Assembly: GCA_964384355.1 (NCBI GenBank) | Contig: CAYLLC010000005.1 | Coordinates: 1 to 48,828 of the forward strand | DNA: 48,828 bases | From: an uncultured Sulfurospirillum sp. | GTDB taxonomy: Bacteria; Campylobacterota; Campylobacteria; Campylobacterales; QNZT01 | Direction: 5' to 3' | In this document: positions 12,694 through 48,828 of the stretch, piece by piece | Layout: the number at the start of each line of letters is the position of its first letter | How positions within the stretch are numbered: position 1 is the stretch's first letter | Notes under the pieces: generated by a model | The model's database searches: none | The model's input: the letters and a program-made list of their open reading frames with translations, nothing else | Told to the model about the DNA's origin: nothing | Translations under genes and position numbers: made by a program

Positions 12694-15600
12694 TTATTTG
12701 AAGCGTTTTTCGCAGTCGTTGCGAATGGCATCCGGAATCGTCGCAATTTTCATGAAGTTGGACATCTTGAGTGCCGGATAGTTGATCGAGATATAGTACT
12801 TCGGCTCCATGATCTTCGCGACGCCCTTTTCGATCAGGATCGGATAAGGGAGCAAAAAGGCGTTATGGTAGCCCGTCTTTTTGATGAACTTGGAGGTGCG
12901 CTTCCCAAGCCCCACACCGACGAGATAGCTGTCGGGGCCGATCTGCTGGACGAACTTCAACCCCTTGCCGTTCTTGAGCTTCTCGAGCAGCGCCCTGGAA
13001 GATGGCGCTTTGGCCACGACGACCATATCTTTGTAGTAGGGCATCCCCTCCATGAAGCGGTAGTTCGGCAGCAGGGTGAACTTCAGCTTGTCGCCGGAGT
13101 TTTTCAACCCTTTGAACGCTTTGTTGAGCTTTGTCAAAACCTTTTTGACCGTTTTGTCGTCGTAGGATTCCCCCATATAGGCCCTGGCGAAATAGAGCGG
13201 ATTGGTGACCGCGATCTCGTTGTTCTCTTTATTGACCAATACCCGCATGACACCTGTGAATCCGCTGTTTCTCTTTTTGGCGAGAGCGAGGAGATTCTCA
13301 TCGGTGAAGGTGACCGTCTTGAGGGTACCCTTTTTGTTGACCGGTGTCGCGGCAATCACTTTGAATCCGGCCTGCTTGAGTGCCTCTTCGACATGTGCGA
13401 CATCCATGAAGTTTCCGATCAGATAGGTGCTCACCCGGCCGCTGACAGGCTCGCCGGGCATCGTACCCGCATCCTGCGTCTGCGTATCGGAGCCCTCCGC
13501 GCCGAAATCGGGCGGTCTGCGCTGGCTGAAAATGATACCGCCCTGCTCCTCTTTGCGCGGTGTATAGTGGATATCGGATCCGCCGACCGTGATCACATCG
13601 AGCGGCTGCACCGGTTTTGGCGGCTCAGGCAGTTTGATCTTGTAACCGTTCTGCTTGTCGGCTGCCGGAGCGGGTGCCGGAGATTCTCTCTTTTGCACTT
13701 TTTGCGGTGCCGGCTGCACCGTCTTGACGATCGGGGCTTTGACCGGTGCCGCTTTGGGTGCTATCTTCGGTTTGGTTTCGGCTGTTGCAGCCTCTTTCGC
13801 AGGCTTTTGCACCTTGGCGTTTTTCGATGCTTTGGGTACGATCGCGATCAGCGGATTGGTATTGGCGATCTCCGTTGCACCGAGCTTCCCAGTCATGATC
13901 TCGGGGATCTCACGGTCGAGTTTCGCGATAAAATCTTTGCGCACTTTGTCGTCGATACCGAGTGTCGCCTGCCAGTTGGCCAGTTTGGGCATACCTACGA
14001 TGATGCGGTTTTCACCCTTGCGGATGAACATATACATCGTACAGGGAGCGAAGAGCCCGCCCTCCGGCCTCGCACCGGCATTGTCGAACAGGGTATAGGA
14101 GAATTTGAACTGACAGAGTGAATAGGTCCAGAAAGCGTCGAAACCGGGAATCGTATCTTTCCCGTCACCCTCTTTGAAGTTGTTGTATCCGGCGATGAGA
14201 TAGCCCCCTTTTTCGAAGGCATCCTCGAACTTCTCCTGAAATGCATCCACGACATCTTCGAGTTCCTGCCCCTTCTCGAACGGAATTTCGAAATTCATCA
14301 TGCGATCTTTCGCATACCCTTTCGCCTGAAGTATCTCCTCTTTGCCGCCCAGCTCTTTTGCGATCAGCTTGTCGAGGGCTTCGAGAGACGCCGTATATTT
14401 CTGGCGGAGCTTTGCGTCGGTGATGCTCAGCATATCGAGTATCGCATTGGGCATCAGGTGGCCGACATGCGTCACATTTTCATCCTTTTTCTTGTAGATC
14501 AGGAGATTGAACGGATTGAATCCGGCGATTCGCGGATCGATATTGAAGAGCGGCTTGACGACACCCTCGTTGGCGATCGACATGAAGCTGAGCAGATCGA
14601 GCACCGTTTTGCCGTACTTCTTCTTGTAGTGGTCGTTGACACGCTTGTGCGGGTCGGTCAGCTTGAAGCCGATCCGGTTGATCGACTTTTCTACGAACTG
14701 ATTATATTTTGCCTCGATATTGCCGTCGAAAGTGAACATCTTCGCCAGTCGCATATCCTTGATCGGCAGCGCTTTGACCGCTGTCGGTACGGCGGGAGCG
14801 GCTTGCGCGGCTTTGGCAGGTGTGCTTTGTACCGCCTTCAGGGGGTTGGCGTTATTCGTCGGTTTGGCATCCATTTCATCGACGAGAATCGAAGCGATCT
14901 CTTTATCGAGATGATCCATAAAATCACTGCGCATTTTATCTTTGACATCGAGTGCCACTTTGACATTCTCCAGCAGCGGCATGCCGATGATCAGCTTGTC
15001 GGAGCCTTTGGGGATAAACATATACATCGTACAGGGGGCAAAGACTCCCGCTTCGGGAATCATCCCCTCATTGTCGAAAACGGTACTGGAGTATTTCATA
15101 TGACAGAGCGAATAGGTCCAGAAAGCGTCGAATTTCGTCAGGGTTTTCTCTTCGTCCGGATCTTCGATGAAGTTGTGAAAACCGGCGATCACATATCCAT
15201 GCTGTGCGAAGATATCCTCGAAATTCTCCTGAAACTCATCCACGAAATCATCGACATATTCGGGACGGTCGAAAGTGATCTCGAAATTCATCATCCGTTT
15301 TTCGGGAAGCTTGGTATAGTCGAGATATCCTGCGTTCGCTTTGCCAAACTCCGCTGATAGCATCTCGTCCAGTTTCGTAAACGACGCGATATATTTCTGG
15401 CGCACCTCCGGCTCATCGACACCGGTGATATCGAGAATCGCTTCGGGAGTCATATGGCCGACATGATACGCCTCTTCATCGAGTTTTTTATAGATCAGCA
15501 TGTTGAATGGGTTGAAACCGGCCAGACGCGGATCGATATTGAATAGAGGCTTGACCACGCTGTCGTTGACGACCGGCAGAAAGCTCAGAATATCCAGCGC

Positions 15601-15864
15601 CGTTTTGCCGTAGAGCTTCTTGTAGACATCGTTGACCCTGCGATGCGGATCGGTGAGTTTGAAGCCGAGCTTTTTCATCTTTTCGGTGACGAACTGATTG
15701 AACTTCGCTTCTGTCTCTTTCCCTTTGACATGATAGAGCAGTGCGAGATGCTTGGCTTGTACAGCGGGCTTTGCGGGGGATTCGGCTTTGCCAAAGGCGG
15801 AGCCGGATAGCAGAAAGAGCAGGATCACACCAAGTGCGAACAACCGGGATTTTATATACAACAC
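12694..15864 (-). CDS. Large exported protein built from repeated DUF302-like domains (two ~335-aa tandem modules + Pro/Ala/Lys linker + C-terminal module)
   Basis: The ORF-track start at 15897 is TTG. AAGGAGG at 15871-15877 is followed 7 nt later by GTG at 15864, giving the signal peptide (M)LYIKSRLFALGVILLFLLSGSAFG|K. The protein contains an internal duplication: VVKPLFNIDPRLAGFNPFNMLIYKK / VVKPLFNIDPRIAGFNPFNLLIYKK and FDAFWTYSLCH...FAPCTMYMFIPKG / FDAFWTYSLCQ...FAPCTMYMFIRKG. These patterns resemble DUF302 (TT1751-like) domains. Confidence 0.7.
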   Translation of the reverse strand: MLYIKSRLFALGVILLFLLSGSAFGKAESPAKPAVQAKHLALLYHVKGKETEAKFNQFVTEKMKKLGFKLTDPHRRVNDVYKKLYGKTALDILSFLPVVNDSVVKPLFNIDPRLAGFNPFNMLIYKKLDEEAYHVGHMTPEAILDITGVDEPEVRQKYIASFTKLDEMLSAEFGKANAGYLDYTKLPEKRMMNFEITFDRPEYVDDFVDEFQENFEDIFAQHGYVIAGFHNFIEDPDEEKTLTKFDAFWTYSLCHMKYSSTVFDNEGMIPEAGVFAPCTMYMFIPKGSDKLIIGMPLLENVKVALDVKDKMRSDFMDHLDKEIASILVDEMDAKPTNNANPLKAVQSTPAKAAQAAPAVPTAVKALPIKDMRLAKMFTFDGNIEAKYNQFVEKSINRIGFKLTDPHKRVNDHYKKKYGKTVLDLLSFMSIANEGVVKPLFNIDPRIAGFNPFNLLIYKKKDENVTHVGHLMPNAILDMLSITDAKLRQKYTASLEALDKLIAKELGGKEEILQAKGYAKDRMMNFEIPFEKGQELEDVVDAFQEKFEDAFEKGGYLIAGYNNFKEGDGKDTIPGFDAFWTYSLCQFKFSYTLFDNAGARPEGGLFAPCTMYMFIRKGENRIIVGMPKLANWQATLGIDDKVRKDFIAKLDREIPEIMTGKLGATEIANTNPLIAIVPKASKNAKVQKPAKEAATAETKPKIAPKAAPVKAPIVKTVQPAPQKVQKRESPAPAPAADKQNGYKIKLPEPPKPVQPLDVITVGGSDIHYTPRKEEQGGIIFSQRRPPDFGAEGSDTQTQDAGTMPGEPVSGRVSTYLIGNFMDVAHVEEALKQAGFKVIAATPVNKKGTLKTVTFTDENLLALAKKRNSGFTGVMRVLVNKENNEIAVTNPLYFARAYMGESYDDKTVKKVLTKLNKAFKGLKNSGDKLKFTLLPNYRFMEGMPYYKDMVVVAKAPSSRALLEKLKNGKGLKFVQQIGPDSYLVGVGLGKRTSKFIKKTGYHNAFLLPYPILIEKGVAKIMEPKYYISINYPALKMSNFMKIATIPDAIRNDCEKRFK

Positions 15865-15945
15865 GTCTATGCCTCCTTTTGAATCAGACTTTTGCAAAAA
15901 ACAACAGATAAGAAATTATTATCTTTTGCAAAAGCCTATAAATAG

Positions 15946-15981
15946 AAAAAGCCACTGTCAACTGAATGACAGCGGCTTTTT
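15946..15981 (-). terminator. Rho-independent terminator of the repeat-protein gene
   Basis: aaaaa-gccactgtca-actgaa-tgacagcggc-ttttt. The stem is 10 bp (one G-U on the minus-strand RNA), flanked by A5/T5, 22 nt after the stop at 16003. Confidence 0.65.
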
Positions 15982-16002
15982 GCGGTACGAAATTATGATC
16001 GA

Positions 16003-16953
16003 CTATTTTTTGTCGTCGTCATCCGTAGCTTCTTTGACGGCATCGCTCGTGTCGTGCGAAATCGTTTTGGTAGAGTCGTTTGCATTGTCGGAGACCGTTT
16101 TGACGGAGTCTCTGGAGTCGTTGGAAACGGTTTTGGTCGTATCATCCAGATCGTTGGAGACCTCTTTGACGGCATCGCTCGTGTCGTGTGAAATCGTCTT
16201 GGTAGAGTCGTTTACATTGTCGGAGACCGTTTTGACGGAGTCTCTGGAGTCGTTGGAAACGGTTTTGGTCGTATCATCCAGATCGTTGGAGATCGTCTTG
16301 ACAGAGTCACTCGTATCGTTTGAAATCGTTTTGACCGAATCGCTTGTGTCGTTGGATACCGTTTTGGTCGCATCGTCCAGATCGTTGGATACTGTTTTGA
16401 CCGAATCTCTTGAATCGTTAGAGATTGTCTTGACGGAGTCCGTCGTGTCGTTGGATACTGTTTTGACCGAGTCTCTGGAATCGTTAGATACCGTTTTGAC
16501 GGAATCTCTGGTGTCATGCGATACTTCGACGACGGAATCTTTCATATCTTTGGCAGCGATCGTGGAGCTATCTTTGAGATCGGTAGAGACATTGGTGACG
16601 GAATCTTTGGTATCTTCTGCCACTTCCACAGTCGAATCTCTGATATCTTTACTCACGCTTGTGACACTCTTCTCGGAGCTTCTGACCGTTTCTACTTCAC
16701 TCGTTTTCAGATCGTCGGACATTTTGACAGCCGAATCTTTCGCATCGTGACTCACATTGGTCACTGTTCTTTCCGCACTTTTACTCGTTTCGACAGCACC
16801 GTCTTTCATAGCTTTGACACTGTCTTTCGCATCATGGCTCATAGATGTCACGGCATCTTTCATATCCGTAAACATATCTTGGAAACTAAAATCGGCAGAG
16901 AGTGGAGCCACCATCGCGATTGTCAGTGCACTTGCTAAAACTATTTTTTTCAT
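16003..16953 (-). CDS. Secreted acidic Ser/Thr/Asp-rich protein made of about 26 tandem 11-residue repeats
   Basis: 316 aa. GGAGG RBS, signal peptide MKKIVLASALTIAMVAPLSA, then a continuous 11-mer periodicity (e.g. KTVSNDSRDSV KTVSNDTTDSV KTISNDSRDSV) running to the C-terminal DDDDKK. Confidence 0.8.
   Translation of the reverse strand: MKKIVLASALTIAMVAPLSADFSFQDMFTDMKDAVTSMSHDAKDSVKAMKDGAVETSKSAERTVTNVSHDAKDSAVKMSDDLKTSEVETVRSSEKSVTSVSKDIRDSTVEVAEDTKDSVTNVSTDLKDSSTIAAKDMKDSVVEVSHDTRDSVKTVSNDSRDSVKTVSNDTTDSVKTISNDSRDSVKTVSNDLDDATKTVSNDTSDSVKTISNDTSDSVKTISNDLDDTTKTVSNDSRDSVKTVSDNVNDSTKTISHDTSDAVKEVSNDLDDTTKTVSNDSRDSVKTVSDNANDSTKTISHDTSDAVKEATDDDDKK
16032..16560 (-). repeat. In-frame 33-bp tandem repeats, including a near-identical 132-bp (4 x 33) duplication at 16032-16163 / 16164-16295
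   Basis: Read directly. The unit is gttggaNAcNgttttgaccgaNtcNctNgaatc. The two 132-bp copies differ at about 3 positions. More degenerate 33-bp periodicity continues to about 16860. Confidence 0.85.
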
Positions 16954-17141
16954 AAAAACCTCCAGGTATAAATTTTTTTTATACGAGAATTATAATATTT
17001 TTTTGCTGAATTAGAACTTAATCTATCAGATCTTCTTATATTTTCTTCACGCTTTGAAATAACAATAAATATAAGTAAATTTGATTTATAATCTCTTTTA
17101 CGCTAAAATAGTCTACTCAACTACATTATGAAGGATTACCT

Positions 17142-17561
17142 ATGAAAAAAATGCTCTTTTCGTTCGCACTCACATCTACGCTGCTGCTTGCATCCGATAT
17201 CATGCACTATACCCAGGCCGACAGGATCAAGGATATGCAGACGATGGCCGCAGCGATGGGAGAGATACAGAGCGGGTTTTTCTACAACAATCTCGACATG
17301 ATCAAAGAGGGCGGCCTCAAACTCGTGACGGCACTCGAGAGAGTCGAGCCCCCGCTCGAAGAGAAAGAGGAGAAAGATGTCATGACCAGATTCATGAACA
17401 ACAAAGTCAAAATGACCAACTCGATCAAAAGAAGGGTGCGCAAAAAAGTAACACATATGATAGAGAGCTTCCAAGAGGGTCGGCCTGAAACGGCACTGCA
17501 GGATTTCAAAAAGATCACGGAGAGCTGCATGGCTTGTCATACGCGGCTCAGAAGCTGGTAA
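17142..17561 (+). CDS. Small exported class II cytochrome c-like protein, paralogue of 10883-11296
   Basis: 139 aa. AAGGAT RBS, signal peptide, and C-terminal CMACH. Shares RI.DM..M...IQ.GF.YNNL..I..G and C.xCH.R.R.W with the other copy. Confidence 0.6.
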   Translation: MKKMLFSFALTSTLLLASDIMHYTQADRIKDMQTMAAAMGEIQSGFFYNNLDMIKEGGLKLVTALERVEPPLEEKEEKDVMTRFMNNKVKMTNSIKRRVRKKVTHMIESFQEGRPETALQDFKKITESCMACHTRLRSW

Positions 17562-17569
17562 CGGATACG

Positions 17570-18466
17570 GTGGTGAAACAGTATCTCAATAGAAAGACAT
17601 TGCTGGCGATTGCACTGTGTGCTTCGCTGACGCAGGCACATGCGACCAAGCTGGTCCTCCCCGGCACGGTCATATCCAACGGTCAGAAGATGATCGGAAG
17701 CCGCTTCATGGGCTATGTCAAGCATGTCTATGTCAAACTCGGCCAAAAGGTCAAAAGAGAGCAGAATCTCTATGAGATGGAGTCTGCGGAGTTCGATATA
17801 CTCAAGTCCCAGGCCGATCTGATGCTCGAACAGTCGCAGACGGTACTGGAGTTCTGGAAGAAGCGGCTCCACATTCTCAACGAGAAGCGAAAGCGCCTGA
17901 AGAAAAAATCGAAGATGCAGAATATCATGGGAGATCTCGATGATCTCGAAGCGCAGGCGGAGAATGCCCAGACGATGCTCGAAGCCGCACAGGTGATGGT
18001 CAAGCAGGCAGCGATCAAAGCGAAACAGCTGGCCTCCGTCTACAACTATCTCAAGATGAAAGCACCTGCAGACGGCGTCATCGTGATGAAAAACATCAAA
18101 GAGGGCGATATGGTGATGCCCGGAATGCTGACGATCATGATGGTCGACACGGAGGACCTGACGGTCGATGTCACGATCCCTGCCAGCAGTCTCAAAATCG
18201 TCCATGTCGGTCAGAAAGTCGATGTGATCATCGACGCACTCAACTTCAGGACGAGCGGTGTCGTCGATGCGATCATACCCGATGCCAATCCTATGACCCA
18301 CAAAATCAAGATGCGCGTCAAATTCGACAAAAAAGATGCAAATGTCTTCCCCGGCATGTATGCGAAGATCATCGTCGATTCCCAAAGCGATGTCCGAAGC
18401 AACGACACGACCAGCGACGAAACATCCTCCAATAAGCGGAAATTCCACCCTCTCAAACTCGACTGA
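17570..18466 (+). CDS. Efflux periplasmic adaptor (membrane-fusion/HlyD family), second copy
   Basis: The ORF-track start at 17534 is TTG inside the preceding gene. GTG at 17570 or 17573 gives the signal peptide (M)KQYLNRKTLLAIALCASLTQAHA. The lipoyl/hairpin/barrel pattern is paralogous to 22030-22824 (LVLPGTVISNGQKMIGSRFMGYVK versus LELSGTVVSDNRKMITSRYMGFVK). The start is uncertain by a few codons. Confidence 0.7.
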   Translation: MVKQYLNRKTLLAIALCASLTQAHATKLVLPGTVISNGQKMIGSRFMGYVKHVYVKLGQKVKREQNLYEMESAEFDILKSQADLMLEQSQTVLEFWKKRLHILNEKRKRLKKKSKMQNIMGDLDDLEAQAENAQTMLEAAQVMVKQAAIKAKQLASVYNYLKMKAPADGVIVMKNIKEGDMVMPGMLTIMMVDTEDLTVDVTIPASSLKIVHVGQKVDVIIDALNFRTSGVVDAIIPDANPMTHKIKMRVKFDKKDANVFPGMYAKIIVDSQSDVRSNDTTSDETSSNKRKFHPLKLD

Positions 18467-18596
18467 TCCCTCCATGTCAGCACCGCCATATCCTATCGAT
18501 ATGCGCAGGTGCGCTATCTGTGATAGCCGGTTATAGATATTATAAGTAGCGGAATATTTACTGTTTTAATCAATATTTATAGAAATCATAAGAAGC

Positions 18597-41047: not shown

Positions 41048-41569
41048 TCACCCCATGATATCCTCTAAAATCGTCGTGATCTCCGTGCGTTCATGACAGC
41101 GCAGGCGTGTCAGCAGCCCTCTTTTGGGCATCAGCCGGTTGCTGCCGACCAGCCCGATCGCGTTGCAGACCACTTCGCTGGTCTTGGGGAGGGCGTCGCG
41201 CGCTTCGATGCGAAAACGGTAGCTGCCGCCGTAGAGCCGTGAGCTCAGCGGCATGACGATGAGGGAGTGGTAGATGCCCAGCGTCACGGCGCGGTTGAGC
41301 CGGTCGTTTTGCCAGATGAGCACGGGGCGGATCTTGCCTCTGGCCGAGGGGTCGAGATCGGCGAAATAGATCTCCCCTTTGTGAATCTCCACCCCTTCCA
41401 GCCCTTCGGCGGTGCTGTCCTCGGATTCCAGCGCCTCGAGCCACGCCTTTTTCTGCGTGCGCGGCCGCGTGACGAAGATCGCTCTGTTTGCCAGCAGCCA
41501 TGCCCGATACGCCGGATCCTGCTCCCGCGCTACCGCCTCGAGAAAACGCGCTTCCCTGCTCTCTTTCAT
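41048..41569 (-). CDS. MazF/PemK-fold toxin-like protein with a ~60-aa N-terminal extension
   Basis: 173 aa. Residues ~63-173 (KGEIYFADLDPSARGKIRPVLIWQNDRLN...IVMPLSS...SEVVCNAIGLVGSNRL...LTRL...ITTILEDIMG) follow the PemK/MazF pattern (GdI..v.l.P..G.E....RP.lVl..d..N......v.PlTs...S.v...Qir.vd..RL). The ATG sits in an ATGA overlap with the phoR stop. Confidence 0.6.
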   Translation of the reverse strand: MKESREARFLEAVAREQDPAYRAWLLANRAIFVTRPRTQKKAWLEALESEDSTAEGLEGVEIHKGEIYFADLDPSARGKIRPVLIWQNDRLNRAVTLGIYHSLIVMPLSSRLYGGSYRFRIEARDALPKTSEVVCNAIGLVGSNRLMPKRGLLTRLRCHERTEITTILEDIMG

Positions 41570-42954
41570 GCTTTTGCCCGCAGTCCGCCGATATCGAACC
41601 AGAACTTCGACCCTTTACCCGGCGTGCTCTCGATCTCGAGATAGCTGTTGTGGAGCTTGAGGATATATTTGACGATGTAGAGCCCCACGCCGATCGAATT
41701 GTCCCATGTCAGCGCATCGACACGGAAAAAGCGCTTGGTGATGTTTTCGATATCCTCTTTGCCGATGCCGATCCCCTCGTCGATCACCTCCACGCGGTCG
41801 TCGCGGACGCGGATCGTGACCGCCTCATCGGAGTATTTGAGCGCATTCTCCACCAGATTGGTCATCAGATTGTCGATCATCGCGCGGTCGGCTTCGATCG
41901 TGACATCCTCCGCATCGATCGTGATCTCTCTGTTTCGGTACTTCTGCTGCAGGGTATCGCGCACCTCCTCCAGCAGCGGAAGCAGCCGGAATTTCGTAAA
42001 TACGGGGGTGAAGTTCTCGTTTTCCAGCTTGATCGCCAGCGCGAGCCGGTCGATCATGCCGGAGATCTTCGTCGCGTTGGAGAGCACCTTGTCGAGAAAT
42101 TTGATGCGTACTTCACGGCTGAGATTGTCGTCGTCGCGCACCGTCTGGGTATAGCCGATGATCGCGGCGACGGGGTTTTTGAACTCATGGCTGATCGCGG
42201 AGATGATATCGCTCTGCTTTTTGCTCAGCATCTTCAGGTTTTTGGTATATTTGGCCTTCTGTCGCTCGCGCTTCTCCAGCTTCTTCGAGACTTTGGCGAT
42301 CTGTTCGGAGATCGTCTCGAACTCTTTGCAGCAGCGCACTTCGTCGAAGTGGACTTCGTACTTTTTGTTGAGCATGTTGTCCAGGCTCTCTTCGATCAGC
42401 TCCAGATCGCGGGAGATCCTGCGGTTGATCCGCATCGCCAGCCAGAGCGCCAGCGCCATCGCCGCACCGAAGAGCCCGATCGCCTTGAGCCAGAAGCTGA
42501 AGAACTTCTCCCGGATGCTTTTGAGCGCATAGGCCATACGGATAAAGCGCTGCTCCTCTCTTTTGGCGACATAGAGAAAGTTGCGCCCCACGCTGTGGGA
42601 GTAGCGGATACTCTCTCCGATCCCCTCCCGCAAAGCCTGCCGGATCTCCGGACGGTTCAGGTGATTCTCCATCCCCGCCACTTTGCGGTTGCTCTCGTAG
42701 CGCACATGCCCTTCCCTGTCGATGATCGTGATGCGGATACCGGTTTTTTTGTGGATCTGCGCGATCAGCGGCGCGGGATCGGTGACATACCGCTCCGCCG
42801 CGGTATAGCTGTCGATCATCTTCAGCAGCATCGTTTTGTGGTTGTTGATTTCGATGCGCTTCAGCAGGTAGTAGCCGCTGATACCCGTCAGCAGCAGCGT
42901 CGCGAAAAAGAGAATCGAAAAGTTTCGGAAGTAGAGCTGGTCGAGCCTCAGCAT
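41566..42954 (-). CDS. phoR: Phosphate-regulon-type sensor histidine kinase
   Basis: 462 aa with 2 TM helices. H-box SHEFKNPVAAI, N-box LVENALKYS and G-box GVGLYIVK. It lies in the pst-phoU operon. Confidence 0.65.
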   Translation of the reverse strand: MLRLDQLYFRNFSILFFATLLLTGISGYYLLKRIEINNHKTMLLKMIDSYTAAERYVTDPAPLIAQIHKKTGIRITIIDREGHVRYESNRKVAGMENHLNRPEIRQALREGIGESIRYSHSVGRNFLYVAKREEQRFIRMAYALKSIREKFFSFWLKAIGLFGAAMALALWLAMRINRRISRDLELIEESLDNMLNKKYEVHFDEVRCCKEFETISEQIAKVSKKLEKRERQKAKYTKNLKMLSKKQSDIISAISHEFKNPVAAIIGYTQTVRDDDNLSREVRIKFLDKVLSNATKISGMIDRLALAIKLENENFTPVFTKFRLLPLLEEVRDTLQQKYRNREITIDAEDVTIEADRAMIDNLMTNLVENALKYSDEAVTIRVRDDRVEVIDEGIGIGKEDIENITKRFFRVDALTWDNSIGVGLYIVKYILKLHNSYLEIESTPGKGSKFWFDIGGLRAKA

Positions 42955-45081: not shown

Positions 45082-45891
45082 TTATCCTTTGTGTCTGGTG
45101 AGATATCTGCCCAGCAGATTGATGAAGAGCACGATCATCGTCAGTACGAACGACGCCGCCCATGCCAGATCGCGGCTGGGCTGGTCGGGGTAGTTGGCGA
45201 GGTTGTAGATACTGACCGTCAGGGAGGGGAACTGGTCGTTCAGATTCATCGTCATGTAGGCGTTGTTGGCGGAGGTGAAGAGCAGCGGTGCGGTCTCTCC
45301 GATGATCCGCGCGAACGCCAGCAAGATACCGGTCATGATCCCCACCTTGGCCGCTTTGATCACGATCTGGAGGATGATTTTGTGTTTGCTTCCGCCCAGT
45401 GCGATGCCCGCTTCCCGGAGCTCTTTGGGCACGAGCGAGAGCATATTGTCGGTGGTGGAGATGACGATCGGAATCATCATGATCGCCAGCGAGACGCTGC
45501 CCGCCCAGCCGCTGTAGTGGTTGACCGGAGAGACCAGCAGCGCATAGACGAAGACGCCGATCACGATCGAAGGGGCGCTCATCATCACATCACTCAGATT
45601 TCGGATCACCGCGGCGAGGCGGCTCTGGTTGGAGTATTCGCGCAGCCAGATGCCCGCCATCATCCCCAGCGGCACGCCGATCAGCGTCGCGATCGCCCCC
45701 ATCGTGAACTGTCCGATCAGCAGGTTTCGGATACCGCCGTTGACCAGATCATGCACGAAGATCGAAAAGTGCATGCTCGAAAGCCCCCGGATCGTCAGCG
45801 TCGTCAATATCCAGAACAAAAATCCCATCCCAAGCAGTGCCGAGATCGTCGAGAGTATCAGTATCACCTTGTTGAGCAGCAGTCGGTTCAT
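45082..45891 (-). CDS. pstA: Phosphate ABC transporter permease PstA
   Basis: 269 aa with 6 TM helices and the EAA loop (LREAGIALGGSKHKIILQIV). Confidence 0.88.
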   Translation of the reverse strand: MNRLLLNKVILILSTISALLGMGFLFWILTTLTIRGLSSMHFSIFVHDLVNGGIRNLLIGQFTMGAIATLIGVPLGMMAGIWLREYSNQSRLAAVIRNLSDVMMSAPSIVIGVFVYALLVSPVNHYSGWAGSVSLAIMMIPIVISTTDNMLSLVPKELREAGIALGGSKHKIILQIVIKAAKVGIMTGILLAFARIIGETAPLLFTSANNAYMTMNLNDQFPSLTVSIYNLANYPDQPSRDLAWAASFVLTMIVLFINLLGRYLTRHKG

Positions 45892-46742
45892 TTTTGCTTC
45901 CTTCCCAGAAAGTAGAACTTCGCGACCGAGATGATGATGAAACTGATCACGAAGAGAATCAGCGCCAGATAGAACATAGAGCTCAGCTCCAGATCTTCCG
46001 CTTCGGCGAAGTTGTTGGCGAGCAACACCGGAATGGAGGTGGTCGGATCAGTGATCTTTTTGGGCAGCTGCATCACCGAACCGATCAGAAACGCCACCGC
46101 CATCGTCTCGCCGAGCGCACGCCCGAGCGCGAGAATGATCGATCCGATGATACCCGTCTTGGCGTAGGGCATGATCACATCCTTGATCACTTCGAATTTC
46201 GTCGCCCCCATCGCGTAGGCGCTCTCTTTGAGGACATCGGGGGTGGTGTTCATCGCATCTTTGGTGATCGCCGACATGAAGGGGATGATCATGATCGCCA
46301 GCACCAGCCCCGCCGTCAGCAGCCCGATACCGCTGCCGCCGAAGAGGTGCTGCACGATCGGCGCGAAGTAGAAGAGTCCCCACATACCGTAGATGATGCT
46401 CGGAATCGCCGCGAGCAGCTCGATCGAGACGGAGACCGGCTTGATCATGAAGTCGGGCGCCACCTCCGTCAGAAAGATCGCGATCCCCATCGCGATCGGC
46501 GTCGCCACCACCATCGCGATCAGCGTCGACAGCAGTGTGCCGACGATCGGGATCAATCCCCCGAAGACACCGCCCTCGTCATCTTCGCCCACCTCCCACA
46601 TATCGGTCACCAGAAAGTGCCATCCGAACTCCTTGATCGCATCCTGCGCATAGAGATAGAGCACGATGAAGATCCCAAGCAGCAGGAAAAAGGAGAGCGT
46701 CGCCGAAAAGAGGGAGAAGTTTTTGAACAACTTGCCTGTCAT
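45888..46742 (-). CDS. pstC: Phosphate ABC transporter permease PstC
   Basis: 284 aa with the EAA loop (LKESAYAMGATKFEVIKDVIMPYA). ATGA overlap with pstA. Confidence 0.88.
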   Translation of the reverse strand: MTGKLFKNFSLFSATLSFFLLLGIFIVLYLYAQDAIKEFGWHFLVTDMWEVGEDDEGGVFGGLIPIVGTLLSTLIAMVVATPIAMGIAIFLTEVAPDFMIKPVSVSIELLAAIPSIIYGMWGLFYFAPIVQHLFGGSGIGLLTAGLVLAIMIIPFMSAITKDAMNTTPDVLKESAYAMGATKFEVIKDVIMPYAKTGIIGSIILALGRALGETMAVAFLIGSVMQLPKKITDPTTSIPVLLANNFAEAEDLELSSMFYLALILFVISFIIISVAKFYFLGRKQK

Positions 46743-46791
46743 GTTATACCTTGGTCAGAACTGGGTGTGGAAATTTTGCGCTTATTTTATC

Positions 46792-46822
46792 TACAAAAGA
46801 TTACAAAATAGTTACAAAACAC
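46792..46822 (-). promoter_or_regulatory. Three phased TACAAAA direct repeats (candidate Pho box) upstream of pstC
   Basis: TACAAAA occurs at 46792-98, 46802-08 and 46813-19, spaced 10 and 11 bp apart and lying 50-80 bp upstream of the pstC ATG. OmpR/PhoB-family regulators bind direct repeats with about 11-bp phasing. Confidence 0.4.
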
Positions 46823-46846
46823 TTTTCACCTGCAACTACAATTATA

Positions 46847-47482
46847 TTATATCAAGTGTTCAAGTTGATTCAACCACTGATTAAATCTTAACGCTTTTTT
46901 TCTAATCGTATTTAGTCCTATATCACTAGCAATAGCTTCTCCATAAAAGACTTTATCATAGCTCTCTCCCATTTCATTAAAAAGTTTTTCAATCCTTTTT
47001 GACGGAGCGGTTTGTGGCGAGTCATTGATCTTTTCAATATCATCTTGAAAAGAGGCGATTATTTTTTCCATTTCATTTGCAATTTTATCATTTTTAAAAT
47101 ACTCTTCAAAATATTCAGGTTTACTAAAAAGTAGCGTTTCAAATTCATACTTTTGGATATAAGGTATAAATTTTCTGTCATTAAAACATTTAAATAGTAT
47201 CTCTTCAAGTTCATCTACATCATCAGTTGGCCTTTTGCTAAATCCATAAAAGTCATAAAATGTTGTTACATAGTCAAAATGAGGTAAAAGCCTTATAATC
47301 TCATTTTTAATTCTATCGATATTTATACATCCACCCGGGTTTTTTCTACCACATCTATCTTTACTTGTCGTAACAATTACAGGATTTATAGATACATTAT
47401 ATTCCATTAAGTGTGGTAAAAGCACCTTATTCACAAACTCCCTTTCAGTTTGCCCCTCTACCGATATAGCAACCCTTATCAT
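46847..47482 (-). CDS. DUF4276-like small protein (putative Toprim-like effector)
   Basis: 211 aa. The N-terminus MIRVAISVEGQTEREFV matches my memory of the DUF4276 start and resembles the first Toprim motif (hydrophobic strand-EG-x-x-E/D). ATGA overlap with the upstream ATPase gene. Confidence 0.55.
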   Translation of the reverse strand: MIRVAISVEGQTEREFVNKVLLPHLMEYNVSINPVIVTTSKDRCGRKNPGGCINIDRIKNEIIRLLPHFDYVTTFYDFYGFSKRPTDDVDELEEILFKCFNDRKFIPYIQKYEFETLLFSKPEYFEEYFKNDKIANEMEKIIASFQDDIEKINDSPQTAPSKRIEKLFNEMGESYDKVFYGEAIASDIGLNTIRKKALRFNQWLNQLEHLI

Positions 47483-48567
47483 GGATTAGCTCCAAGAAGA
47501 TTTTTTTGCCAAAGCTCTCCTATGCTATATTCTTCAATCCATTCTTTTAAACCACCTAAATCCAACCTCTTAAATGTAGAGCTATTATCTTCCCTATCTA
47601 CAACAATAATATCTTTGGCGTCAAAAAAGTCTATAAAAGTCACAGATTGAGTAGAAGCAATAATTTGTGTCTTTGTTGAAGCCACTCTAAACAAACTTGC
47701 CAAAATATTCAGTGCATAGGGATGTAGCCCAAGTTCTGGCTCATCTATGAGTATCATAGTCGGTAGTTTTGGTTGCAAGAGAAGTGTTGTCAAACAGATA
47801 AATCGTATGGTTCCATCTGAGAGATCATTTGCATCAAAATATAAATCACTCCCCTTATGTTTCCATCTAAGTTTTATCATCTCTTCATTTGCAATATCAG
47901 GCTCAAGTATAAAATCATGAAAAAATGGTGCTACTCTTTGGATTGTTTTTACAATTTGGCTATAATTTTTTTCATAGAAATGTTTTATATAATAAAGATA
48001 AGCGGGTAAATTATGTCCATCTACTGCTAACGAGTAATAATCATCTACACGACAAGGCTGTTTCATAGGCGAGGATTTGCTTGTATCATGAAAATGGTAA
48101 ACTTTCCAGTCGTTTATATATTTTACAATATATACATTTACACCATAGTCCTTTGGATCGTACAAGGGAAGATTACTCTCAAAACCACCAATATTAGGCT
48201 TTATAAAATTTTTATTGCTGGTATCAATGTAAGTATTTTCTTCTTTAAAAATCAACTTATTATCATCAGTGGGGACAAGTGTTGCCTTATATCTATTTGG
48301 TGCAAAATGTAAATCAAAAATCAACTCTTTTGTTACTTTGGCTCCAAAATGCAAAACCTTATTTGCTCCACCCATTTGTGCGACTGTTAACTCTAACTCT
48401 TTTTCTATAATCTTTCTCATAAAGTTAAAAAAGCCTATAAAGTTACTCTTACCAGCTCCATTTGCACCCAGCAAAATATTTATATTGCCAAAGTATAAAT
48501 CTAACTCTTTTATAGATTTATACCCTTTTAGTTGCATCCTGTCCAACTTGCCAAGATCATTATTCAT
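47479..48567 (-). CDS. ABC/SMC-like (AAA_15/AAA_21-type) ATPase
   Basis: 362 aa. Walker A GANGAGKSN, signature-like LSDGT, Walker B/D-loop MILIDEPELGLHP and a trailing ASTQS. The N-terminal LKGYKSIKELDLYFGNINILLG is typical of RecF/OLD-type ATPases. Confidence 0.75.
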   Translation of the reverse strand: MNNDLGKLDRMQLKGYKSIKELDLYFGNINILLGANGAGKSNFIGFFNFMRKIIEKELELTVAQMGGANKVLHFGAKVTKELIFDLHFAPNRYKATLVPTDDNKLIFKEENTYIDTSNKNFIKPNIGGFESNLPLYDPKDYGVNVYIVKYINDWKVYHFHDTSKSSPMKQPCRVDDYYSLAVDGHNLPAYLYYIKHFYEKNYSQIVKTIQRVAPFFHDFILEPDIANEEMIKLRWKHKGSDLYFDANDLSDGTIRFICLTTLLLQPKLPTMILIDEPELGLHPYALNILASLFRVASTKTQIIASTQSVTFIDFFDAKDIIVVDREDNSSTFKRLDLGGLKEWIEEYSIGELWQKNLLGANP

Positions 48568-48743
48568 ATTTATTCCCTAAATGAATCCCAAAATTCACAT
48601 ACAACAAAAAGAACCTGTTGTCAAATGTTGATTTTTAATATGTTATCTTATCTCAAAGTAGTTTGAAGAGAGATAATTCAAATTGAAACAAATACACGAA
48701 CAAGTATTACTCTATTTTATATTTTATGTTGAAGTACGAAAGT

Positions 48744-48828
48744 ATGAAAAAAATTTATGATTCTGTCCTTAGATTACAAAAGCTTGTAGCCGATCCCATG
48801 TATCGGGACAATGTAGATTTTGTCACCG
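48744..48828 (+). CDS. Start of an unidentified ORF running off the right edge
   Basis: ATG at 48744 (or in-frame ATG at 48726) gives MKKIYDSVLRLQKLVADPMYRDNVDFVT... It is divergent from the ATPase gene. No RBS is obvious and there are too few residues to classify it. Confidence 0.25.
   Translation, partial: MKKIYDSVLRLQKLVADPMYRDNVDFVT

Follow-up and report, generated by a model that had tools for sequence, protein, structure and literature searches.

A stand-alone ATPase-DUF4276 gene pair assigned to HEC-01 between a response-regulator gene and pstC in a vent Campylobacterales contig

Composition, boundaries and gene arrangement of the hecAB cassette

The stretch of DNA analysed here, referred to throughout as the window, is the entire contig CAYLLC010000005.1 (assembly GCA_964384355.1; 48,828 nt), position 48,828 being the end of the contig. 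Close to this end, two intact open reading frames (ORFs) on the minus strand, which we call hecA and hecB, fill an AT-rich block of 1.7 kb (Table 1). They form a stand-alone member of HEC-01 ('Hma-embedded candidate 01' of PADLOC; Payne et al., bioRxiv 10.1101/2024.01.29.577857), which has been catalogued before as a candidate anti-phage system and is hence not undescribed. The two genes have a combined guanine-plus-cytosine content (GC) of 0.318, while host windows of 1.72 kb have 0.542 +/- 0.036 with a minimum of 0.433 (z = -6.1), and in windows of 300 nt the GC falls from 0.56-0.64 to 0.27-0.35 at the island. The same is seen at third codon positions (GC3), with values of 0.26 and 0.23 for the two cassette genes versus 0.72-0.83 for pstC, pstA, pstB and phoU. 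A preliminary description, made by reading the DNA alone, had placed the start of this drop exactly at position 46847 and had let it continue to the window edge. The drop is indeed abrupt and real, but it begins at 46742, the start codon of pstC: the 104 nt that separate the stop of hecB from the ATG of pstC (46743-46846) are AT-rich promoter DNA of the host itself. It ends before the last 55 nt, which belong to the host again.

Both sides of the island can be recognised as host DNA. On the left, the 17-residue regulator tail has 15 of its 17 residues in common with the regulator that the closest relative (L002/L101) carries upstream of pstC, and a tblastn search of this peptide against related loci gave 70 matches at E <= 1, those listed being regulator C-termini in the same orientation. 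On the right, the repeats TTTTGTAA that precede pstC are also present upstream of pstC in relatives. The TTTGTA(A/G) tandem repeat (46791-46820) occurs once in the window. As Sulfurovaceae relatives have it too, upstream of both pstC and pstS, we call it pho-box-like, and it probably serves as the pho box of this lineage. The pho-box promoter of pstC was left intact by the insertion. Because the 3' end of the response-regulator gene and the pstC promoter are both host DNA, the island is closed on both sides and is no longer than about 2 kb. At the nucleotide level, the closest relatives are homologous over positions 48532-46917 only, i.e. within the ORFs, and the hecA leader (48568..48773), which may be of host or of imported origin, shares no homology with the flanks of other cassettes; the foreign segment possibly consists of the two ORFs and a short leader alone.

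The ATGA overlap between the two genes, already noted in the preliminary description, is confirmed in the sequence, and hecA and hecB are translationally coupled. In homologous pairs the ORFs likewise overlap (by 4-8 nt) or abut (with a gap of about 4 nt), and the arrangement seen here, with hecB adjacent to, downstream of and co-oriented with hecA, recurs as hecB directly after hecA in 17 of 19 related genomic loci. A promoter-like site in the hecA leader (48750-48721, minus strand) scores 9/12, which is not above shuffled background. Control of hecAB by the Pho system through a pho box was considered and rejected: hecA has no tandem pho-box motif upstream of it, and the sole copy in the window belongs to pstC. 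We also noted a near-consensus sigma-70-like promoter with an extended -10 element (TTGAAT-16-TGATATAAT; 46846-46873, minus strand) in the last codons of hecB and directed into pstC; this motif is not conserved in other cassettes, and promoter-like sites overall do not exceed shuffled expectation.

The hecB/pstC junction is crossed by four contigs from four assemblies (L110 = JGI Ga0256833; L183 = JGI Ga0256841; L181 = ENA ERZ27262647; L182 = NCBI GCA_964427945.1), all collinear with the window at 99.6-99.9% identity. Since these contigs are independent, we reject an assembly chimera at this junction. Both ORFs are intact in five assemblies. Among the strains represented by L181, L182 and L183, hecA shows four non-synonymous (L135F, V145A, P167T, V174L) and three synonymous changes, and the host genes, compared with those of contig L001, show 44 synonymous and 4 non-synonymous changes; these counts are too small for any conclusion. 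The four HecA changes all fall within residues 135-174 (48046-48165, minus strand), a poorly conserved insert between the ATPase lobes. The protein P0001 differs from the HecB of the window by N169K, and an exact-protein look-up of HecA returned no identical entry. Contig L001 (99.2% identity), from the ENA sample that also yielded L181, starts at position 46797, 55 nt upstream of pstC and within the pho-box repeats; this start may reflect a strain-level bubble, a strain without the cassette, or a plain assembly break.

Table 1. Positions of the hecAB genes and of the sequence features that surround them in the window.
Feature	Position	Strand	Description
hecA	47479..48567	minus	362-aa ABC (SMC/Rad50/OLD/PtuA-type) ATPase
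hecB	46847..47482	minus	211-aa DUF4276 protein, Toprim-like putative nuclease; C-terminal half helical
ATGA overlap (hecA stop / hecB start)	47479..47482	minus	plus strand reads tcat; GGAG about 10 nt upstream of the hecB ATG
Leader	48568..48773	minus	206 nt between response-regulator stop and hecA ATG; GC 0.23-0.26; AGGGA ribosome-binding site; no pho-box repeat
Left host boundary	48774..48828	minus	last 17 codons and TAA of an OmpR/PhoB-type response-regulator gene (GDKIYIVPIHGIGYKLL, then stop); GC 0.42
Right host boundary	46791..46846	minus	native pstC promoter region; three TTTGTA(A/G) repeats, phased 11 and 10 nt, from about 30 nt past the hecB stop
pstC	45888..46742	minus	first gene of the host pstC-pstA-pstB-phoU operon, directly downstream; BPD_transp_1; flank, outside the module

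The two proteins and their assignment to HEC-01

HecA contains a Walker A motif, GANGAGKSN (G34-N42, residues 34-42), the sequence YHFHDTS (157-163), the signature LSDGT (249-253) and the segment ILIDEPELGLHP (272-283), which includes the Walker B motif DEPELGLHP (275-283), and it is devoid of a coiled coil. Walker A (as GxNGxGKSN), YHFHDTS, LSDGT and DEPELGLHP are all kept in HecA homologues at 39-82% identity. In Pfam the protein matches AAA_21 (9.5e-29) and also AAA_15, and in PADLOC it matches HEC-01A (PDLC04175; 5.1e-143, 474.5 bits) with residues 6-362 aligned to positions 4-362 of the 363 of the profile. Its AlphaFold2 (AF2) model has a predicted local distance difference test score (pLDDT) of 92.8 and, in a Foldseek search, resembles the SMC head 4i99 (E 1.4e-14, TM 0.60/0.66), with further resemblance to Rad50, to OLD 6p74 of Thermus (a nuclease), to PtuA as found in Septu and retrons, and to GajA; the similarity to OLD 6p74 is also found by sequence (2.6e-7). 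At the position of the H-loop, HecA reads STQS (Q307; residues 305-307 correspond to 47647-47655, minus strand) where OLD has STHS, the histidine thus being replaced by a glutamine that is invariant across the HEC-01A homologues examined. This family-wide replacement suggests that HecA would act as a slow-hydrolysing switch, not as a motor. The gene caller had started the protein at M11 (P0121, 352 aa); we favour the start that gives 362 residues because residues 4-10 are conserved in homologues.

HecB belongs to Pfam family PF14103 (DUF4276), its sole match in Pfam, with an E-value of 1.2e-46 and a score of 159.9 bits against a gathering cut-off of 30.2, residues 8-208 covering positions 1-192 of the 192 of the profile. 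Its best PADLOC match is HEC-01B (PDLC04188; 2.1e-66, residues 1-210 on positions 12-226 of 230), and all five of its five matches there are HEC-01B models. By sequence, nothing in the PDB scores better than E = 0.2, and none of the Toprim models of Pfam matches HecB at E <= 0.1. The AF2 model (pLDDT 89.8, pTM 0.85) consists of a beta-alpha core followed by a helical half, and its sole significant fold match in the PDB is the Toprim-containing C-terminal region of the Xanthomonas OLD protein 6njx (E 1.9e-4, prob 1.0, TM 0.39-0.40); its best full-length neighbour in BFVD is a phage RloB-like protein (TM 0.48, E 0.036). In a profile search of 1.84 billion cluster representatives, the family came to 3,619 members at E <= 1e-3; of the best 150 listed, nearly all have a length of 190-235 aa.

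Eleven residues, E9, G10, E13, G51, D77, E113, E115, E150, K177, F200 and W203, are invariant in 76 diverse HecB representatives (33-54% identity). The motif MIRVAISVEGQTE is present in the translation, its VEGxTE coming after strand 1, and E9 stands at the end of this strand (residues 2-8 in the model), where Toprim proteins have their glutamate; E13 is likewise invariant. D77 ends strand 3 (71-77), again as in Toprim, and the invariant E113 and E115, which come after strand 4, may supply other metal ligands. Candidate active-site residues are E9, E13, D77, E113 and E115, together with E150, R163 and K177.

We assign the pair to HEC-01 because HecA matches the HEC-01A model, and HecB the HEC-01B model, over the full length of each protein. 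HEC-01 has been described as an ABC ATPase with a TOPRIM protein that has an OLD-like metal site, and was discovered through its embedding in Hma systems (bioRxiv 10.1101/2024.01.29.577857). DUF4276 has been published as a member of the Toprim superfamily and a homologue of Mad4 of MADS, and has been linked to NsnC variants of Menshen; a phylogeny in the PARIS paper associates a clade of AAA15/21 ATPases with DUF4276. With a HEC-01 representative from a cold seep, E. coli B was protected from one or more of the phages T4, T5 and T7. The NCBI record labels for such a pair still read 'AAA family ATPase' and 'DUF4276 family protein'. The preliminary description had proposed the logic of an ATPase plus Toprim-like defence pair, and its quoted motifs are all found in the translations; the Pfam and PADLOC matches, the fold matches, the invariant acidic residues and the literature agree with it, and support an ABC/SMC-type ATPase with a Toprim-like DUF4276 protein, a design shared with OLD, PARIS, AbiL and Gabija. 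Its suggestion that the pair might be undescribed or barely described holds in part: HEC-01 is catalogued and has been tested twice, once with a negative and once with a positive outcome, and 'barely described' is fair for its mechanism.

Host locus, relatives and mobility

The PstC protein of the window is 79-90% identical to proteins from Sulfurovum, Sulfurovaceae and Campylobacterales metagenome-assembled genomes, mostly from hydrothermal samples, and we take the host to be a Campylobacterales (Sulfurovaceae-like) bacterium of about 54% GC from hydrothermal-vent metagenomes. The gene order in most of its relatives is response regulator, pstS, pstC, a few having other genes in the slot. A search of the whole window found no pstS, and the island lies where this gene normally sits, as the preliminary description had pointed out. 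HecAB was found near the pst locus in none of 81 related genomic loci and in one of 80 metagenomic pst loci (L110, which is the same strain as the window; the other 79 are without the pair), in line with the expectation that the island would be absent from close relatives. This absence from the locus in all relatives sampled, together with the composition, indicates that the pair was horizontally acquired. In two of the closest pstC relatives, other cargo takes the place of pstS between the regulator gene and pstC, namely a 612-aa membrane protein in L002 (1908-3746) and a 569-aa protein in L007 (8221-9930), and the slot appears to be variable in this lineage.

The highest identity to any sampled homologue is 80%, and these closest relatives are organised as tight Mod-hecA-hecB-Res operons, with 1-nt gaps or overlaps between genes, in which the pair is flanked by an N6_N4 methyltransferase (791-842 aa) and a ResIII/DEAD helicase (945 aa). 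Neither a methyltransferase nor a helicase adjoins the cassette in the window. In one lineage (L186 6070-7990, L187 1819-3739, L188 597-2517), a second AAA_15/21 ATPase (457 aa) and a 184-aa protein that has no Pfam match are encoded directly upstream of hecAB; in L186 both pairs come after the N6_N4 methyltransferase gene and before an unannotated gene cut at the contig end (assumed to be the Res/helicase gene), giving the picture of stacked embedded cassettes.

Many copies in Campylobacterota are inserted bare between core genes and have about 32% GC, in hosts whose own GC is 40-55%; the sites include MscS-like/radical-SAM, thiE/gatB, valS, dxs/aconitase-family and purT/sdhA-like. Comparison of 12 cassette copies revealed no conserved flanks, and flanking direct or inverted repeats were not detected beyond short matches at chance level; a transfer RNA (tRNA) search of the whole window confirmed that it contains none. 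A phage or plasmid vehicle was considered and rejected: a tblastn search with HecB of 50,697 phage records gave no match, there is no PHROG, and only 13 plasmids carry the pair, in distant forms (31-40%). Housekeeping functions make up most of the 127 proteins encoded in the neighbourhood of the 17 nearest genomic homologues, and the PADLOC matches among them are few and confined to a few loci.

Two other regions of the window were noted in passing. A 173-aa PemK/MazF-like toxin ORF (41048-41569, minus strand; Pfam 3.3e-10) overlaps by 4 nt at its start the end of a sensor-kinase gene (41566-42954); it comes after the pstCAB-phoU, regulator and kinase genes, and no antitoxin ORF is evident. 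The region 15000-18500 has a lower GC (0.45-0.47) and contains two ORFs with no Pfam match (17136-17540 and 17537-18475, minus strand) and, at 16003-16953, a gene for a 316-aa protein with only sub-threshold apolipoprotein-like repeat matches.

Proposed role, rival explanations and comparison with known systems

We consider it likely that hecAB is a horizontally acquired, stand-alone HEC-01 module that would act as an ATPase-gated nuclease against phage. OLD, Gabija, Septu and above all PARIS suggest by analogy that HecA would dimerise around ATP and hold or position HecB. A phage cue would then shift the nucleotide state of HecA; this cue might be DNA, either foreign or as free ends, or else a protein of the phage, for instance an anti-restriction factor, and the latter would fit the embedding of the closest relatives in Mod/Res operons. 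The change in HecA would free or activate HecB as a metal-dependent nuclease, which would cut nucleic acid (phage or host DNA, or tRNA) and thereby halt the infection, perhaps with the loss of the cell. The analogy may extend to PrrC and RloAB, which are cassettes embedded in restriction-modification (RM) operons.

Several observations weigh against this proposal. The first test of HEC-01, in E. coli MG1655, showed no protection against any phage tried (bioRxiv 10.1101/2024.01.29.577857), and the positive report concerns one distant representative and gives few details. On the side of the proteins, the global TM-score between HecB and OLD is just about 0.4, and the canonical DxD of Toprim is missing from HecB, which has D77-F-Y79 with the tyrosine nearly invariant (>= 90%). 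As regards the locus, the regulator/hecA junction is supported by this contig alone, a promoter and terminator scan gave nothing that exceeds shuffled background, and the extreme codon mismatch (GC3 0.25 vs 0.8) may limit expression. The copy in the window has no Mod/Res partner and, if the module needs one, would be inert. Lastly, the enrichment of homologous pairs beside defence genes that the preliminary description had envisaged is not supported for the 17 nearest homologues, as in Payne et al., where most candidates showed no enrichment in the vicinity of other defence genes.

The lack of enrichment and the negative phage test would also suit a selfish or addictive cassette, that is, a toxin-like nuclease restrained by its ATPase that moves among naturally competent Campylobacterota with no net anti-phage benefit to the host. 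Such an explanation would account for the bare 1.7-kb low-GC inserts, whose site between core genes differs from genome to genome, and for the confinement of homology to the two ORFs, and Pfam labels AAA_21 as 'putative AbiEii toxin'. One HEC-01 did, however, protect against phage, to be found repeatedly inside restriction operons is typical for a defence gene, and selfishness and defence can coexist; we therefore regard a purely selfish element as unlikely, although it is the best of the alternatives. Alternatively, hecAB (about 1.7 kb) could be a minimal mobile defence cassette without integrase, transposase or repeats, which enters restriction operons and core-gene gaps of naturally competent Campylobacterota, keeps about 32% GC whatever the GC of the host and has here replaced pstS in the Pho regulon. 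Under this speculative reading, to which we give little credence, defence transcription and phosphate uptake may be coupled, either by read-through from hecB into pstC or through the adjacent PhoB-like regulator, and a bolder version would have the ATPase-Toprim pair aid its own insertion.

A further alternative is that the pair is an orphaned RM accessory, which works only with Mod/Res (Hma-like) genes and sits beside pstC as a non-functional passenger. The position of the 80%-identical homologues inside Mod-hecA-hecB-Res operons and the absence of such partner genes next to the cassette in the window speak for it. Most of the 17 genomic homologues, however, also stand alone among housekeeping genes, with ORFs and all motifs intact; Payne et al. 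chose the HECs precisely because they are also found outside Hma loci; and both ORFs are intact in five assemblies. We rate this explanation as rather improbable. Still less probable, in our view, is a housekeeping factor of DNA repair or recombination, a RecF/Rad50/OLD-like ATPase with a nuclease, that has no part in immunity. The top fold matches of HecA do include SMC and Rad50 heads, and its neighbours are housekeeping genes, but the distribution of the pair is patchy and lineage-specific, its composition is foreign, it is absent from all related pst loci, its best sequence matches are to defence families, and it has neither a coiled coil nor a partner of the Mre11/SbcD type. An assembly artefact, in which a low-GC fragment of another organism was fused to a high-GC contig, is hardly credible and largely refuted: the GC change is abrupt and near the contig end, and the 99.2%-identical L001 stops 55 nt upstream of pstC, but four contigs cross the junction and the same pattern of bare low-GC inserts is seen in long contigs of other genomes.

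The find leaves the current understanding of these systems unchanged, and its setting is slightly unusual in being stand-alone, in the pstS slot and of extreme GC contrast. What it contributes is a clean natural example of a candidate defence family that is poorly understood, and a recently imported, intact and stand-alone pair argues that the two genes can persist without a restriction-system partner. The residues of interest are K40 and the unusual H-loop Gln307 of HecA, and E9, E13, D77, E113 and E115 of HecB. The recurrent bare insertions and the displacement of pstS are small curiosities on how defence genes travel in vent Campylobacterota.

Compared with HEC-01 as described, the pair has an unchanged architecture, in which the small TOPRIM/DUF4276 protein comes after the ABC ATPase, and its nearest relatives lie in methylase/helicase operons, as has been described for HECs; the window copy differs in standing alone at a pst/Pho locus of a high-GC Campylobacterales genome, and its HecA is three residues shorter at the end, which results in the ATGA overlap instead of the usual overlap of 8 nt. 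The closest solved structures are those of the OLD family (class 1, P2 Old and Thermus 6p74; class 2, Xanthomonas and Burkholderia) and of GajA, but in these the ATPase and Toprim parts are fused in one chain, whereas here they are encoded by two genes, and HecB has D-x-Y in place of the Toprim DxD of OLD. The Old, GajA and ATPase-Toprim models of PADLOC score far below HEC-01A on HecA, and GajA of Gabija needs the helicase GajB, whereas no helicase adjoins hecAB.

MADS and Menshen are related to the pair in that Mad4 and some NsnC C-terminal domains are DUF4276 and that HecA weakly matches the Mad3 and NsnB models. The score of HecA on Mad3 (NF047739) is, however, 99.2 bits against a cut-off of 420, no other mad or nsn genes are present, the flanks being the response-regulator gene and pstC, and HecB is free-standing. 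With RloA/RloB, AbiLi/AbiLii and PrrC the pair shares its genetic logic, in which an RM operon harbours a small unit (ATPase or nuclease), HecA matches AbiLi (1.5e-22), and the structural neighbour of HecB in BFVD is itself RloB-like; the small partner is nevertheless PF14103, not PF13707, and the copy in the window is without an RM partner. PARIS has a DUF4435 effector, AriB, in place of the DUF4276 protein HecB, which matches no AriB model of PADLOC, and its ATPase AriA (about 53-55 kDa) is far larger than HecA (362 aa). It does share with hecAB the split into an ABC ATPase and a small effector, which is Toprim in AriB and Toprim-like in HecB, HecA matches the AriA model at 2.9e-27, and PARIS is the best-understood model of such pairs, in which the ATPase scaffold frees the nuclease upon sensing a phage protein.

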